Positions 2,880-18,860 of a DNA stretch of 24,000 nucleotides are shown here, one piece after another (the first letter of the stretch is position 1; each line of letters starts with the position of its first letter). Below the pieces are notes generated by a model. That model ran no database searches and was not told the DNA's origin. It worked only from the letters and a program-made list of their open reading frames with translations. Source of the stretch: Thiomicrospira microaerophila. GTDB lineage: Bacteria; Pseudomonadota; Gammaproteobacteria; Thiomicrospirales; Thiomicrospiraceae. The position numbers were made by a program, and so were the translations under genes. The DNA is taken from the NCBI RefSeq assembly GCF_000934765.1, contig NZ_JYNN01000002.1:1-24000 (forward strand), written 5' to 3'.

Positions 2880-5066
2880 ATGAGTGATAATACTCAAGCC
2901 TTGTCGGGTCGTGCATTATCTCGCGCGAGAAGACAAGCATTAACAAAGGGCAAAGGCGCAAAGATTGATTATGCTGCTCTTGCTCAGAGTACCTCTGCAC
3001 CTGTAAAGAGTTCGGCGCCTGCGCGGAGTGAACCTTCGTTCGCTCCGTCTAGTCCCGCAAGATCATTTGATGTCAATCCGCAGCAGGCTATTTTGTCTGC
3101 CGGTAGAAAGGCATCGATTGAGCGTCGAAAACAACAGGTAAAAGGTAATTCACGTAACAATACCCAGCCGACTCGTCAGCCTAGAAAGCCGATTGAGCCA
3201 GTTATTGAGACGACGCCTACTCAAGCCGTCGCTAACGTTGAGCGCAGTTTTGTTCCGCCTATGAGTGCGAATACAAGCCGTGCAAAAGTTAATCCTGTAA
3301 AGTCTAGTGCAACCAATCAACCTAAAGGGCGATTAATTGCGCGTTCATACAGAAAAGCGGCTTGTGAAGGTAAAGCTAAATTGCAAGCGAAAATGAGTCA
3401 AAACAGTGCATTAACTTGCATTGCAACCTCAATGGATCCAGATGCAAGCTGTCGTGATATTGCACGCCAAATTCGTGAGCAACGTGCTACACAAGGTAAG
3501 GTTAAAGCTACTTCTTCTGCGCGCCCGACAGGTCGCATGTCAAAAAAGCCCGAGAGCAACTCACCTAGTAAGGTTGGGTTTGCGATGACGTCTCACGAAC
3601 AAGAAGTAAGTGGTACTGTTTTAGCAACTACACAAAAAATGACAGGCTCGGAAGCGGGTTCATGTCGTGTAATTTCTGGAACAGAATATACCGGTCCTGA
3701 TGAATATCAAGCAAAATGTAGTTTTAAACCTGATCCATCTATACGGAAGGTTGCGATGACCTCGACTATTTCTGGCAGAACAGTGAGTGGTACTGAAGTC
3801 GGTTTATCTGAATCAGTTACGGGTACTGAGCCAGGGCAGTGTCGTCATGTAACCGGCACCGAATATATGCCTGCTGATCAAGGTGAAATTTTTTGCGGTA
3901 CAAGAGCGCCAGCGGGTGTATCTAAAGTCAGTCAATCACGCACAGCGAAGAACCAAGTGATCTCTGGTCCCTCAATGAATAAACGTGAAGACATGACAGG
4001 TATGGACGCAGGGGAGCAGCGTCATATCACGGGTAGTCAGTATGTGTTTAATAATTCACCTATTGTCAACAAGCAAACACGTGAAATGCGCAGTTCTATT
4101 ATGTCGGCACCAAGTAAGGGTGATTCAAACTCTACGGGTGCGGGTAATAATGTTTCAGGTACTAATGTAAATTTTAATGCGCCTGTTACAGGCGATGATG
4201 CTGGTTTTTGCCAAAGTTTAACTGGCGGTGAATATCAATCACAGCAAATTCGTCAAGAACGTTGCGGTGACTCACTGACGGCGGCAGTTAAGAAAAGCAT
4301 CGAATCACAAACTTTCAACGGTCAAAAAATCACCGGCGATCGTGCAGGGCTTGGTGGTAAAATCACTGGAGCAAATGCGGGTTTGTGTAAGAGTGTAACA
4401 GGCTCGTCTTATTTAAGTTTTGATGCTACGGAAGGTTGTGCTGTTAACAAGACAGCCCTTAAGCCTGATGCACAAGCAAAATCAACGCAATCCAATGTAG
4501 GTCGTCCAATGACCGGCATTCAGCCAGGTCCTTTAGGTTTAACAGGCGCTCAAAAAGGCGTGTGTCAACCCGTGAGTGGTACGGCTTATGTGGGTTCAGA
4601 TCATGCTTCTGCGTTATGTCAGGTAGGTGCGCCAGCCAGCATGGGCGATTCAGATTTTCCAGTAATGATGAATCAGCAAATGCCGATGATGGCTTTAAGC
4701 ATGCCAATGCATAATTATGGTTATGTACCCCCTTTGCAACAGCCCGAAAATATTTTGGTAGGTTCTGAGGAGTTAAGTGAAGCGGACAAGGTAGTCTCTA
4801 AAATAACCGGAGATGGTTCAGATAGTGGGCATTCCATTACTGGCGATTCTTGGGGTAGAGACGCGAAGGTCAGTGGAACAGGGGGACGTTCGGCTCAAAA
4901 ACGTAATGTTTCGATTCCTGGTAACCGTTCAGTAATGAATGCAGGCGCGAGCAGTTTTCGACCTAATGAGAACCCAAAAGTAGCAGAAATTAGTCCGATA
5001 ACCGGTTCCTCTGGTAACACTAGAAATGGTGCATCAGTAACGGTATCTGGCGGTGCTAGAGCTTAA
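2880..5066 (+). CDS. csoS2: carboxysome assembly scaffold protein CsoS2
   Basis: 728 aa, low complexity. Four basic N-terminal repeats of the RuBisCO-binding type (for example GRALSRARRQALTKGKG). Many Cys-containing [VI][ST]G repeats (VSGTE, VTGTE, ITGSQ). Ends ...VTVSGGARA. TAGGAGG RBS; canonical position after cbbS. Confidence 0.93.
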   Translation: MSDNTQALSGRALSRARRQALTKGKGAKIDYAALAQSTSAPVKSSAPARSEPSFAPSSPARSFDVNPQQAILSAGRKASIERRKQQVKGNSRNNTQPTRQPRKPIEPVIETTPTQAVANVERSFVPPMSANTSRAKVNPVKSSATNQPKGRLIARSYRKAACEGKAKLQAKMSQNSALTCIATSMDPDASCRDIARQIREQRATQGKVKATSSARPTGRMSKKPESNSPSKVGFAMTSHEQEVSGTVLATTQKMTGSEAGSCRVISGTEYTGPDEYQAKCSFKPDPSIRKVAMTSTISGRTVSGTEVGLSESVTGTEPGQCRHVTGTEYMPADQGEIFCGTRAPAGVSKVSQSRTAKNQVISGPSMNKREDMTGMDAGEQRHITGSQYVFNNSPIVNKQTREMRSSIMSAPSKGDSNSTGAGNNVSGTNVNFNAPVTGDDAGFCQSLTGGEYQSQQIRQERCGDSLTAAVKKSIESQTFNGQKITGDRAGLGGKITGANAGLCKSVTGSSYLSFDATEGCAVNKTALKPDAQAKSTQSNVGRPMTGIQPGPLGLTGAQKGVCQPVSGTAYVGSDHASALCQVGAPASMGDSDFPVMMNQQMPMMALSMPMHNYGYVPPLQQPENILVGSEELSEADKVVSKITGDGSDSGHSITGDSWGRDAKVSGTGGRSAQKRNVSIPGNRSVMNAGASSFRPNENPKVAEISPITGSSGNTRNGASVTVSGGARA

Positions 5067-15670: not shown

Positions 15671-15924
15671 TGGTTATTCCAGACTCGTTTAAAACGCATA
15701 GTTTATCAAACTATTTAGCCCGGATGTTTCATAAATTCGCGTGATGATCGCGCAGGATATTGGTTTCCCAGTGCTTTTTTCGAAGGAGCGCTGTAGTTAT
15801 TCATACAGCCGACTGAGGAAAAAGTGCTGGGGAATCAATAGACAAGCGAGGGCGCGTGAACTTTATGAAGTATCCGGGCTAGATAACGTTTTAAACAAAA
15901 TCTTAGCTTATCGCTGTTGGCGGC

Positions 15925-15953
15925 TTGACCCTTGCTAGGGTATGCATAATAAT
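15925..15953 (+). promoter_or_regulatory. candidate sigma70 promoter for the omega-RNA/iscB transcript
   Basis: TTGACC (15925-15930), a 17-nt spacer, then AATAAT (15948-15953). This would start transcription about 30 nt upstream of the first structured module, leaving room for a 5' guide. Confidence 0.3.
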
Positions 15954-15994
15954 TGCGCTTATTTGCACAATTTTCAAACTAAGAGAAGACGACT

Positions 15995-16165
15995 GTCAAC
16001 AACCCCGGGCTAATGCCCCAAGGGCACGTAGAGCCCGAGGCTTGAGGGAACGATAAGCCTAGTTGACCAGAGGGCTTGATCTTGGATTAAGCAGCAGACG
16101 ATAATGGGTCGTTAAGACTTACCAGTGGGTGCTTCCTTAGCCCACTGCTCTAAAAGGCGTTGAGA
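15995..16165 (+). repeat. tandem module 1 of the omega-RNA-like scaffold (171 nt)
   Basis: Starts GTCAACAACCCCGGGC and ends CTCTAAAAGGCGTTGAGA. It aligns with module 2 along its whole length, apart from an 18-nt insertion (TGCCCCAAGGGCACGTAG) that itself forms a small hairpin. Confidence 0.9.
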
Positions 16166-16318
16166 GTCAACAACCCCGGGCTAAAGCCCGAGGCTTGAGG
16201 GAAACCAAAAGCCTCGTTGACCAGAGGGCTTGATTTGTATTAAGCAGTAGACGATAACGGGTCGTTAAGACTTACCTTGGGATGCTTCCTTAGTCCCAAG
16301 CTCTAAAAGGCGTTGAGA
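16166..16318 (+). repeat. tandem module 2 of the omega-RNA-like scaffold (153 nt)
   Basis: Directly abuts module 1 and has the same start and end sequences. Roughly nine-tenths identical by hand alignment, with differences in predicted loops or as compensatory stem changes. Confidence 0.9.
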
Positions 16319-16446
16319 ATTCTGGCATAGGGTGCGTGCCGAATCTTGATGTCGCCACTTCGGTGGGAGCCGGTTATCGTCAATCTCGAAGGGAGATGCC
16401 GAAAGGCACGTTACTAGTCCCGTAAGGGTAATAATGGGAGGATACC

Positions 16447-17814
16447 GTGTCGGTATTTGTATTAGCAAAAAACAAGAAGCCGTTAATGCCTTGTTCAGAG
16501 AAACGCGCAAGGCTACTGCTTTCTCGGGGGCGTGCGGTGGTGCATTTGATGGTGCCGTTTACGATTCGGTTAAAAGGCCGCACTGACGGTGCAATTCAGC
16601 CACTTCACGTCAAACTTGACCCTGGCTCAAAGCAAACCGGTATGGCGGTGGTACTGGAATCCAAGCTGGATTTAAAGGTGTTGTGGTTAAGTGTGATTCA
16701 CCACCGCAGCCATCAGATCAGTGAACAGCTTACCGCACGACGTGCTATGCGCCGCCGTCGCCGTAATCAGCTTTGGTATCGGCCTGCACGGTTTGACAAC
16801 CGCACCCGGCCTAGTGGTTGGTTAGCGCCTTCACTGCAGCATCGTGTCGATACCACGCTGGCTTGGGTTAAAAAACTATCCAAGCTAGCACCGGTATCGG
16901 ACATCGGCTTGGAGCGGGTGAAGTTTGATATGCAGAAAATGGTGAATGGTGATATTGCAGGCGCTGAATACCAACAAGGCACGCTGTTTGGGTTTGAGGT
17001 GAAAGAATACTTGCTGGCCAAGCACAAGCATACCTGCGCCTATTGCAACGGAGTAAGCGGCGACAACCGGCTTGAGGTGGAACACGTCCAGCCTCGCTCA
17101 AAAGGCGGCGGCAACAGCGTTAAAAATCTGGTTATTGCGTGTCGGAGCTGCAACGAGGCGAAAGGCAGCCAACTTCTTCCAGAATGGAAGCAATCGCTGG
17201 GCAAATCCAAGCTGGATAAATCTCGCGCCATCGGGATTGAGAAAACCATCAAGGGCAAGTGGACAGGTTTGCGGGATGCGGCGGCGGTGAATACCACGCG
17301 TAATGCTTTACTGCATGAGCTGTTACTGTTCGCAAAAGACAATGTATCGGTCTATACCGGTACAGGGGCGATGACCAAGTTTAATCGCAAGCAACAAGGT
17401 ATTTCCAAGCATCATGCGCTTGATGCATTGTGTGTCGGTGAGAGCCTCAAGCCGGTTAAAAACTGGACCAAACCGGTACTGGAGATTAAATGCACGGGTC
17501 GCGGGAGCTATCAGCGTACACGACTGAACAAGTTTGGTTTTCCACGCGGTTATTTAATGCGCCAAAAAGCGGTGCATGGCTTTCAGACCGGCGATCAGGT
17601 TAAAGCGGTGGTTCCCAGTGGGAAAAAGCAAGGTATTTACACAGGCCGTGTGGCGGTTCGTGCCAGCGGAAGTTTTAACATCCAAGCCGCCAATGGTTTG
17701 GTTCAGGGCATTAGCCATAAGCACTGCACGTTAATCCAACGTGGCAGCGGTTACGGCTTTAATTTAACAACGATAGCATTAACTCACGGAGAACGCGAGA
17801 AACAGGCGGCCTAA
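16447..17814 (+). CDS. iscB: IscB, an OMEGA-family RNA-guided endonuclease (RuvC with an HNH insertion)
   Basis: 455 aa, GTG start after GGGAGG. Domains seen: N-terminal PLMP motif (KNKKPLMPC); RuvC-I LDPGSKQTG; Arg-rich bridge helix RRAMRRRRRNQLWYRPARFDNR; RuvC-II GLERVKFD; HNH CAYCNG...LEVEHVQPRSKGG...NLVIACRSCNEAKG; RuvC-III HHALDAL; C-terminal GFQTGDQVKA...GRVAVRASGSFNI. Confidence 0.9.
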   Translation: MSVFVLAKNKKPLMPCSEKRARLLLSRGRAVVHLMVPFTIRLKGRTDGAIQPLHVKLDPGSKQTGMAVVLESKLDLKVLWLSVIHHRSHQISEQLTARRAMRRRRRNQLWYRPARFDNRTRPSGWLAPSLQHRVDTTLAWVKKLSKLAPVSDIGLERVKFDMQKMVNGDIAGAEYQQGTLFGFEVKEYLLAKHKHTCAYCNGVSGDNRLEVEHVQPRSKGGGNSVKNLVIACRSCNEAKGSQLLPEWKQSLGKSKLDKSRAIGIEKTIKGKWTGLRDAAAVNTTRNALLHELLLFAKDNVSVYTGTGAMTKFNRKQQGISKHHALDALCVGESLKPVKNWTKPVLEIKCTGRGSYQRTRLNKFGFPRGYLMRQKAVHGFQTGDQVKAVVPSGKKQGIYTGRVAVRASGSFNIQAANGLVQGISHKHCTLIQRGSGYGFNLTTIALTHGEREKQAA

Positions 17815-17831
17815 CGGCCGGCGCTATCCCT

Positions 17832-17851
17832 CACCGGGCTAAACCCCGGTG
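17832..17851 (+). repeat. hairpin downstream of iscB, candidate right-end structure of the element
   Basis: CACCGGG, loop CTAAAC, CCCGGTG: a perfect 7-bp stem. It contains CCGGGCTAAA, which is also present at the start of both upstream modules. Confidence 0.4.
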
Positions 17852-17870
17852 TCTCTCGCGCAAAAGCAGG

Positions 17871-18860
17871 ATGAAATCGAATTTTGATAAAAAACTGACT
17901 CGCATTTGTGTATTAGGTGGAACGGGCTTTGTGGGCGAGCAGGTAGTAAGGCAGTTATCTTTACAGAATTATCAGGTGCGGATGGTGGTAAGGCGTGCTG
18001 AGCGCTTTCGTCATATTAATCTTTTGCCCGGAGTAAAGCTTGTTGCTTTGACTGAGGGTTATGATGAAGCTTTTTTTAAAACCTGTTTTAAAGATGTAGA
18101 CGTCATTATTAATTTGTTTGCTGACCAAACCTGTCAGACAGAGTCTATTGCCGATGATCAGCTCGTTGAGTTGACGCAGTTAATTAAGCAGGTGGCGGAA
18201 CAGTCAAAAATTAAACGAGTGATTCAGTTGTCGCAAATTGGGGCGAATGCCAGCCAAGCGGCCAATCCTTGGTTAAAGCAGCTGGGTGAGTCGGATGCGA
18301 TTACCCATAATATGGCATCGATTTCTACTACGATTATGCGTGCGGGCTTGTTAATCGGTGCGAATGATTATACTAGCGCTTTGTATGCTAAACAGCTTGG
18401 GCGTGGAGGTTTGGCGATGATTCCCAATGCTGAAAAGCAAGTCCAGCCTTTGTGGGTAAATGATTTTGCCAAGGCCTTGGTATCTAGCATTAATAATAGC
18501 GCTTTGCACAACGCCAGGCTTGAAGTAGTAGGCGAAGAACGCATGACGGTTATGGAGTTGGCGGAATGGGTGAAGACCTTGATGGATTTGGATAAGGCTA
18601 TGCTTTTGCCAATGTGTCAGTTAAATGCGAAGTTCATGTTGTTGTTGGGCCCGCTTGCTCCGTTTAGAACGGTGAGTGCGACGCAGCAAAAAATCTTGGC
18701 GCAAGACTTGATTAGCGAACAAGACTTTGTAGCACATTTCGGTTTTGAGCCGGTTAGTTTAGAGTATGCTCTGTCGAGTTTTGTCGCGAATCATCCGGTT
18801 AAGTATCGCTATGATTACTTCAGACAGTTGGCGGGACGTAATCAGGCCGACTTTAAATAA
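17871..18860 (+). CDS. NAD(P)-binding SDR-family protein (NmrA/NDUFA9-like)
   Basis: 329 aa with an N-terminal Rossmann motif ICVLGGTGFVGEQVVRQL. Confidence 0.75.
   Translation: MKSNFDKKLTRICVLGGTGFVGEQVVRQLSLQNYQVRMVVRRAERFRHINLLPGVKLVALTEGYDEAFFKTCFKDVDVIINLFADQTCQTESIADDQLVELTQLIKQVAEQSKIKRVIQLSQIGANASQAANPWLKQLGESDAITHNMASISTTIMRAGLLIGANDYTSALYAKQLGRGGLAMIPNAEKQVQPLWVNDFAKALVSSINNSALHNARLEVVGEERMTVMELAEWVKTLMDLDKAMLLPMCQLNAKFMLLLGPLAPFRTVSATQQKILAQDLISEQDFVAHFGFEPVSLEYALSSFVANHPVKYRYDYFRQLAGRNQADFK

Follow-up and report, generated by a model that had tools for sequence, protein, structure and literature searches.

The IscB locus in the 24,000-nt stretch of the Thiomicrospira microaerophila genome analyzed here (the window) carries the 5′ part of its omega-RNA twice, in two head-to-tail modules upstream of iscB. 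The system is of a known kind, an IscB/omega-RNA IS element, and its double module is most likely a one-off structural scar rather than a two-guide architecture of a new sort. On balance, we favor an account in which a sibling IscB transposon inserted into the omega-RNA gene of a resident element and recombination followed, leaving the arrangement seen today. The rest of the window is a carboxysome/carbon-concentrating gene region. The features on which the analysis relies are as follows, where R3 refers to five related element copies in Thiomicrospira sp. R3.

15925 to 15953, + strand: host sigma-70-like promoter (TTGACC-17-AATAAT; 10/12 matches in a promoter scan), upstream of the insertion.
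15979 to 15994, + strand: host flank next to the outer transposon end, being the 16 nt that would take the place of the guide if a scaffold began at module 1; contiguous with ATGAAATCG in the metagenome contig L036.
15995 to 16165, + strand: module 1, in which scaffold positions 1–153 of the omega-RNA occur an additional time; of R3-type lineage, bearing the outer transposon end (RE in TnpA terms).
16014 to 16031, + strand: 18-nt insertion, TGCCCCAAGGGCACGTAG, in the loop of hairpin 1; present in neither module 2 nor any aligned homologue.
16150 to 16165, + strand: final 16 nt of module 1, placed where the canonical omega-RNA has its guide, directly 5′ of HEARO model position 1.
16166 to 16318, + strand: module 2, which forms the 5′ portion of the canonical omega-RNA and derives from another element lineage; begins with an intact transposon end, GTCAAC.
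16319 to 16322, + strand: ATTC, where by sequence comparison close relatives read ATGC, save the more divergent L004.
16319 to 16446, + strand: unique 3′ part of the omega-RNA, R3-like, with long-range pairing to module 2.
16447 to 17814, + strand: iscB, 455 aa, GTG start, apparently intact, with Pfam RRXRR and HNH domains.
17815 to 17870, + strand: far transposon end, on the side away from the omega-RNA (LE in TnpA terms), conserved in all homologues; boundary taken from the empty site.
17871 to 17875, + strand: ATGAA, the transposon-adjacent motif (TAM; reverse complement TTCAT), where the downstream gene, of the NAD-binding epimerase family, also has its start codon.

The tandem repeat had been placed at 15995–16165 and 16166–16318 in the first-pass annotation, and three lines of evidence agree with that placement: Tandem Repeats Finder (period of 153, 1.9 copies, 89% matches), MAFFT (90% column identity between the modules), and an independent Logan assembly of SRR4130599 (L026), which shows the identical arrangement and sequence. 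In the MAFFT alignment, the modules differ by the 18-nt insertion of module 1 and two single-base indels. There are also 17 substitutions, eight of which make up four compensatory pairs, with the other nine falling outside local helices and none being disruptive. All 32 of the 32 local base pairs are intact in each module, and the earlier observation that the 5′ part is duplicated with differences that respect RNA structure is upheld. The structural details given with it were also all correct. The stem CAGTGGG/CCCACTG of module 1 (16123–29/16141–47) becomes CTTGGGA/TCCCAAG in module 2 (16276–82/16294–300) through four double substitutions, with every pair kept and an identical loop; the GCTTGAT/ATTAAGC hairpin has the same stem in both modules and an altered loop; and the 18-nt insertion contains TGCCC..GGGCA, which is able to form its own small stem. 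Hairpin 1, which carries this insertion in module 1, is paired in both modules and starts ~10–12 nt inward of the respective GTCAAC terminus; at ~10 nt from the end, it occupies the expected place of an IS200/IS605 RE hairpin. Judging from its position, the insertion may affect TnpA binding and may impair use of the outer end. The scaffold-derived 16150–16165 is identical to 16303–16318, giving two occurrences within the window. The first-pass annotation had remarked that the 18 nt preceding module 2 recur at its end, which is true but automatic in any head-to-tail repeat.

Module 2 and the unique 3′ segment together are one complete canonical IscB omega-RNA. The Rfam HEARO model (RF02033) matches 16166–16400 at model positions 1–211, with 90.1 bits against a gathering score of 83, which bears out the initial identification of an IscB omega-RNA region. 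The covariance-model scan proposed at that stage, asking which module is scored as the scaffold start, puts HEARO position 1 at 16166, in module 2. Module 1 alone gave no HEARO report in the window scan, even with E-values up to 10. We also built a covariance model, R1, from ten homologous 5′ modules, leaving out both window modules. With R1, each module matched at full length, module 2 with 167.9 bits and module 1 with 161.6 bits, and both scores fall inside the range of genuine single modules. The omega-RNA lies on the same strand as iscB, immediately upstream, and runs into the gene. Its canonical scaffold start, 16166, is 171 nt within the insert, the host boundary being 15995. At all other loci examined, a single scaffold starts at the transposon boundary with a guide from the host flank, and this is not the layout found here.

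The boundaries of the element come from an empty site. Metagenome contig L036, with flanks 98–99% identical to the window, reads ...GAAGACGACT|ATGAAATCG..., corresponding to window positions 15994|17871; the inserted DNA is therefore exactly 15995–17870, without target duplication, and module 1 is part of the insert and carries its outer end. The site is likewise empty in L037, a more distant genome. The L036 site could, in principle, reflect seamless excision and not the ancestral state. The encoded IscB is identical to WP_083944828.1, annotated as “RNA-guided endonuclease IscB” of Thiomicrospira microaerophila. A subterminal LE hairpin at 17832–17851 lies 19 nt from the boundary, and the insert sits directly 5′ of the start codon ATGAA of the next gene. 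ATGA adjoins the far end here and, among the other loci, at 19 of the 19 whose LE flank is readable. No tnpA (Y1 transposase) was found within the 24-kb window. As part of the nested-insertion account, which we hold to be somewhat better than evenly supported as a whole, 15995–17870 is an IscB element of the non-autonomous IS200/IS605 type.

Insertion in this IscB family is often precisely at the ATGA that starts a host gene, with the element in the orientation of that gene, as at window position 17871 and in L001–L007, L009, L019, L022, L027, L029, L030, L033, and L035. In these start-codon insertions, the host gene is transcribed through the element, and its ribosome-binding region comes from the last 3–9 nt of the element.

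Several other features of the flanks were noted. Relative to the near-identical contig L036, the window has an insertion of ~173 nt at 15715–15887, between a YcgL-like gene and the host promoter; its ends are imperfect inverted repeats of ~20 nt, TAGCCCGGATGTTTCATAAA and TTTATGAAGTATCCGGGCTA, it has an internal hairpin, and it looks MITE-like. A 9-mer, AAGACGACT, occurs in the host flanks of two unrelated insertions, the window element (15986–15994) and the R3 copy L033 (~3700–3708), at unequal distances from the element end. We considered this identity as potentially meaningful and set it aside as a likely coincidence given the number of comparisons. Past the element end, 13 nt (ATGAACGCGCAGA) are common to L033 (5425–5437) and L034 (5425–5437). 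They form the start of an aminotransferase gene in L033 and are not the start of the next gene in L034, and their presence in both suggests flank that was carried along in transposition or copying.

The two modules belong to different lineages of this family. Module 2 is the outlier, with R3-like sequence in module 1 and in everything from the 3′ segment through iscB to the far end. Positions 61–171 of module 1 are 95–96% identical to the R3 copies and ~88% identical to module 2, and its first 60 nt resemble module 2, not R3. Module 2 is 79–80% identical to the R3 copies and 88.5% identical to L001. Against the R3 copies, the 3′ segment (16319–16446) has 93% identity. In 100-nt windows running from 16316 as far as the end of the element, R3 identity is mostly 90–97%, including 92–95% for those starting at 16316 in the 3′ part of the omega-RNA; the 100-nt windows of module 2 reach 77–86%.

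The history of the exchanged stem agrees with separate origins. This stem covaries across the family: the allele of module 1 is that of the R3 copies and one pair away from that of L027, and the allele of module 2 is one pair away from that of L001/L029, though no intact element with exactly the module 2 stem was found among the loci examined. Both stem alleles pre-exist elsewhere, and the divergence was therefore inherited from two active lineages. The earlier interpretation of the compensatory pattern, as selection acting on both copies in place, does not survive this comparison. The modules are 11% apart, and the host flanks differ by 1–2% from the empty-site strain. The juxtaposition looks young, and its youth by itself explains why module 1 has not decayed. 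A simple in-place duplication, whose copies are mutually closest and no older than the locus, is not what we see.

We then examined how common the arrangement is among relatives, covering 25 loci from GTDB genomes, six close metagenomic homologues, and the five R3 copies, the proteins of which fall in the same 90%-identity cluster as the window IscB. A covariance model made from homologues only found one module at each of ~30 homologous loci and at each of the five R3 copies. Rfam gave one HEARO match in each of the 11 loci of L001–L016 that reach the gathering score, and blastn with both modules gave a single match per close locus. With one module per related locus, the double module is ruled out as a clade feature; a duplication normal for the clade, which the first-pass annotation had named as the observation that would overturn its reading, is absent. 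A degenerate junction pattern, AAAAGRYNTTGAGAGTCRACAACCC, had no matches in JGI metagenome contigs. A looser scan for two GTCAACAACCCC motifs 130–160 nt apart matched 14 loci, none of which had a credible omega-RNA module: HEARO matched none of them, and our own covariance model gave one weak, short match only, in L038. The looser-scan loci that were inspected as candidate double modules were other repeats or repetitive sequence and were rejected. We found nothing specific in the literature on tandem or nested IscB elements.

These searches also brought up unrelated structures. Contigs L042, L044, and L046, from sediment metagenomes, contain arrays of short repeats, GTTGTCAACAACCCCGTCCCCTTGACA, spaced by tens of bases; they are unrelated to omega-RNA and were picked up via a 12-mer shared with the scan. 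Positions 1–390 of L014 hold an omega-RNA 5′ module, cut by the contig end, followed within ~240 nt by a far-end hairpin and ATGA. There is no room for iscB, and this is apparently an iscB-less (PATE-like) mini-element upstream of a full element that starts at 1644. In L004 (the 3556-nt contig JAFGUG010000059.1), the omega-RNA is split, with its 5′ module at 3426–3556 and the remainder at 1–146; the contig is therefore either circularly permuted or broken inside a repeated element.

The nested-insertion account would derive the present locus from two elements. E1, of R3 type, would have contributed module 1, the 3′ omega-RNA segment, iscB, and the far end. E2, a second and more divergent sibling, would have contributed module 2, and its intact terminus GTCAAC (16166) abuts E1 scaffold position 153. 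A TnpA-type single-strand insertion would first have put E2 inside the omega-RNA gene of E1. Homologous recombination between the nested copies, within the highly conserved 3′ omega-RNA segment, would then have removed one copy of the 3′ segment, iscB, and the end, leaving module 1, module 2, and E1-like sequence. Both steps may have taken place at the current locus, or elsewhere with the composite moving in by its outer end. Sequence comparison establishes the anatomy, boundaries, lineages, and rarity of the arrangement, from which the order of events, a role for TnpA, and the identity of the RNA made and bound are inferred. The suggestion made in the first-pass annotation of a “relic of a related element used as a homing site” comes close to this account.

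Module 2 starts at the exact element terminus GTCAAC, which is also model position 1, and module 1 ends at scaffold position 153, after which ATGC comes next in the close relatives compared. ATGC is a near-match to the family motif ATGA, and the junction between the modules adjoins its site. In an R3 element, ATG occurs at 1.4% of positions and a 3-of-4 match to ATGA at 3.7%; the location of the junction beside ATGC is suggestive but not decisive. Points against the account are that ATGC is only a near-match, with four perfect ATGA sites elsewhere in the R3 element, and that the crossover must fall within ~30–50 nt of the start of the shared sequence. Neither intermediate, the un-recombined nested pair or the right-hand junction, was seen among the loci examined. 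Given the likeness of module 1 to module 2 over its first 60 nt, either E1 was not simply R3-type or there has been gene conversion between the modules. We also considered whether iscB contains patches derived from E2; the dips in R3 identity at 16516–16615 and 17116–17465 occur against every lineage and mark variable regions, and this idea was dropped.

Next, we considered which RNA the locus is likely to make today. The promoter sequence at 15925–15953 is also present at the empty sites of L036 and L037 and, from its sequence and position, probably drives read-through of the omega-RNA, iscB, and the downstream host operon. In the minimum free energy (MFE) fold of 15975–16446, the 3′ segment pairs with module 2, not module 1, through the long-range pairs 16250–62/16369–81 and 16309–18/16344–53. 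Only the long-range pairing of this whole-leader fold was used, and local P1 pairing is ambiguous because the guide sequence GUUGA can pair with UCAAC of the next module. We infer that the working omega-RNA consists of module 2 and the 3′ segment, with the last 16 nt of module 1 as its guide, and that module 1 is otherwise a still-intact passenger. The 16 nt of host flank at 15979–15994 occur once in the window. The two guide-matching sites, 16150–65 and 16303–18, precede GTCA and ATTC, respectively, and not the motif ATGA. The match of such a guide to the element’s own scaffold, to which the first-pass annotation had drawn attention, is a result of the tandem layout, and no matching site precedes ATGA. 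Excision of the inner unit, 16166–17870, yields the joint CTAAAAGGCGTTGAGA|ATGAA, a perfect match to the guide, and the inner unit is therefore self-consistent under the “cut-and-copy” model.

A private C-to-T change in module 1 (GATAAC to GATAAT) gives a −10-like hexamer with TTGATC 18 nt upstream (16076–16105), a possible internal promoter ~50 nt 5′ of module 2. Should module 1 pair with the 3′ segment, this base would contribute a G-U pair.

The composition of the guide raises one further idea, which we regard as improbable, that the inner element is an RNA-guided homing element parasitizing sibling IscB elements. In most close siblings, 15–16 of the 16 nt of the guide CTAAAAGGCGTTGAGA agree with the scaffold, and in L001, L027, L030, and L003 the two are identical. 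If IscB tolerates an ATGC TAM, or a sibling has ATGA at that position, the nuclease would cut sibling omega-RNA genes and the element would copy itself in. Were this true, the G-to-T change at 16321 (ATGC to ATTC) would be a self-protection mutation. The ATTC change is found only in the window copy among the close relatives compared and, as sequence evidence, is consistent with avoidance of self-cutting, though without statistical weight.

Of the alternatives to nested insertion at this site, the one we take most seriously, while still thinking it unlikely, is that the composite formed elsewhere and was transposed here as a unit, with the outer GTCAAC end serving as an alternative boundary by which an element lying beside an omega-RNA fragment of a sibling captured module 1. 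The host/insert boundary is indeed the first base of module 1, and excision at alternative motif-matching boundaries outside the native RE has been described by Meers et al., who proposed flank capture (bioRxiv 10.1101/2023.03.14.532601). The 13 nt shared past the far end by the R3 copies L033 and L034 suggest boundary slippage within the IscB family itself. Against this, the 18-nt loop insertion in hairpin 1 may impair the outer end, though it possibly arose later than the move, and a second copy of the composite was found in no collection searched. Accepting this alternative would alter the place and order of events, not the formation of the junction. An assembly artefact joining two alleles of the omega-RNA region in series is the least probable explanation that we considered. 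Both assemblies may derive from the same reads, but the junction is identical from two assemblers, and the source is a Thiomicrospira microaerophila genome contig in NCBI that we assume to be from an isolate. Moreover, allelic variants form graph bubbles, not serial copies, and junction k-mers must therefore exist in the reads.

It is also doubtful, to a degree well beyond that of a composite formed elsewhere, that the 5′ module was duplicated and then selected in both copies, to give two alternative guides or a two-unit RNA as first proposed. Both modules score as intact and no helix is broken by any substitution, but such intactness is equally expected of a young scar (flanks at 1–2%, modules at 11%), and both stem alleles were inherited from other lineages. 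Module 1 GACGATAATGG could pair with the 3′ segment through one G-U pair, and the C-to-T change in module 1 creates GATAAT at a spacing of 18 nt from an upstream TTGATC; module 1, however, could serve as a scaffold only if module 2 were accommodated as a 153-nt insertion inside a helix, and the MFE fold joins the 3′ segment to module 2 only. We found no evidence for either the two guides or the two-unit RNA, and the arrangement exists at one locus only among >35 examined, with no metagenome match. Replication slippage or unequal crossing-over that duplicated the module in place, followed by drift, would account for the head-to-tail layout and for a period equal to the module length, yet we consider it very unlikely on several grounds. 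The left breakpoint is exactly at the transposon terminus; 11% divergence and an 18-nt indel contrast with 1–2% flank divergence from the empty-site strain; the four compensatory pairs reproduce alleles of R3/L027 and of L001/L029; and module 2 stands out from sequence on either side that is R3-like.

Under the nested-insertion account, the locus would show that the guide-RNA gene of one IscB element can receive a sibling, and that the scar left behind changes the guide of the survivor. The empty site additionally gives clean boundaries for a gammaproteobacterial IscB family that has an ATGA motif and is often found on host start codons. No new RNA-guided mechanism is indicated, and the value of the locus is as an example of element rearrangement. 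It also carries a caution, as compensatory differences between adjacent repeats need not imply that both copies have been under selection in place.

Insertion of one IS element into another, and recombination between direct repeats that leaves a partial duplicate, are part of general IS biology. The window element resembles nested or tandem IS copies resolved by recombination in its apparent element-in-element insertion and in the partial duplicate left behind. It differs in that the target here would be a guide-RNA gene, and the scar would reprogram the guide of the surviving nuclease. Cas9 CRISPR arrays and tracrRNA are descendants of IscB/omega-RNA, and the locus shares with them a repeated guide-RNA scaffold beside a Cas9-like nuclease gene. 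Unlike the units of a CRISPR array, those here, of 153 and 171 nt, abut with no unique sequence, and thus no spacer, between them; there are two copies only and no adaptation genes, and this is not an array. Compared with the HEARO omega-RNAs of OMEGA systems, the likenesses are a full-length match above the gathering score, a position 5′ of iscB, and a start at a transposon end; here, in contrast, a second copy of model positions ~1–137 stands in front, and the 16 nt in the guide position are the scaffold of a sibling element and not host flank.

The closest comparison is with ISGst-type elements. In GstIscB, the TAM TTCAT (reverse complement ATGAA) abuts LE and the omega-RNA side is RE, and in ISGst2, the TAM and the TEM (TTTAT/TTCAC) differ at positions 3 and 5 (bioRxiv 10.1101/2023.03.14.532601). 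The window element likewise has its TAM, ATGA (reverse complement TCAT), against the end that is farther from the omega-RNA, and its TTCAT (TAM) and TTGAC (terminal motif of the omega-RNA end) also differ at positions 3 and 5. As in the elements of Meers et al., insertion is seamless, without target duplication. There is a subterminal hairpin 19 nt from the boundary and no tnpA nearby, and the orientation lets a host promoter read into the element. Where it departs from the ISGst type is in having two tandem omega-RNA-side ends, which make two nested units possible, 15995–17870 and 16166–17870.
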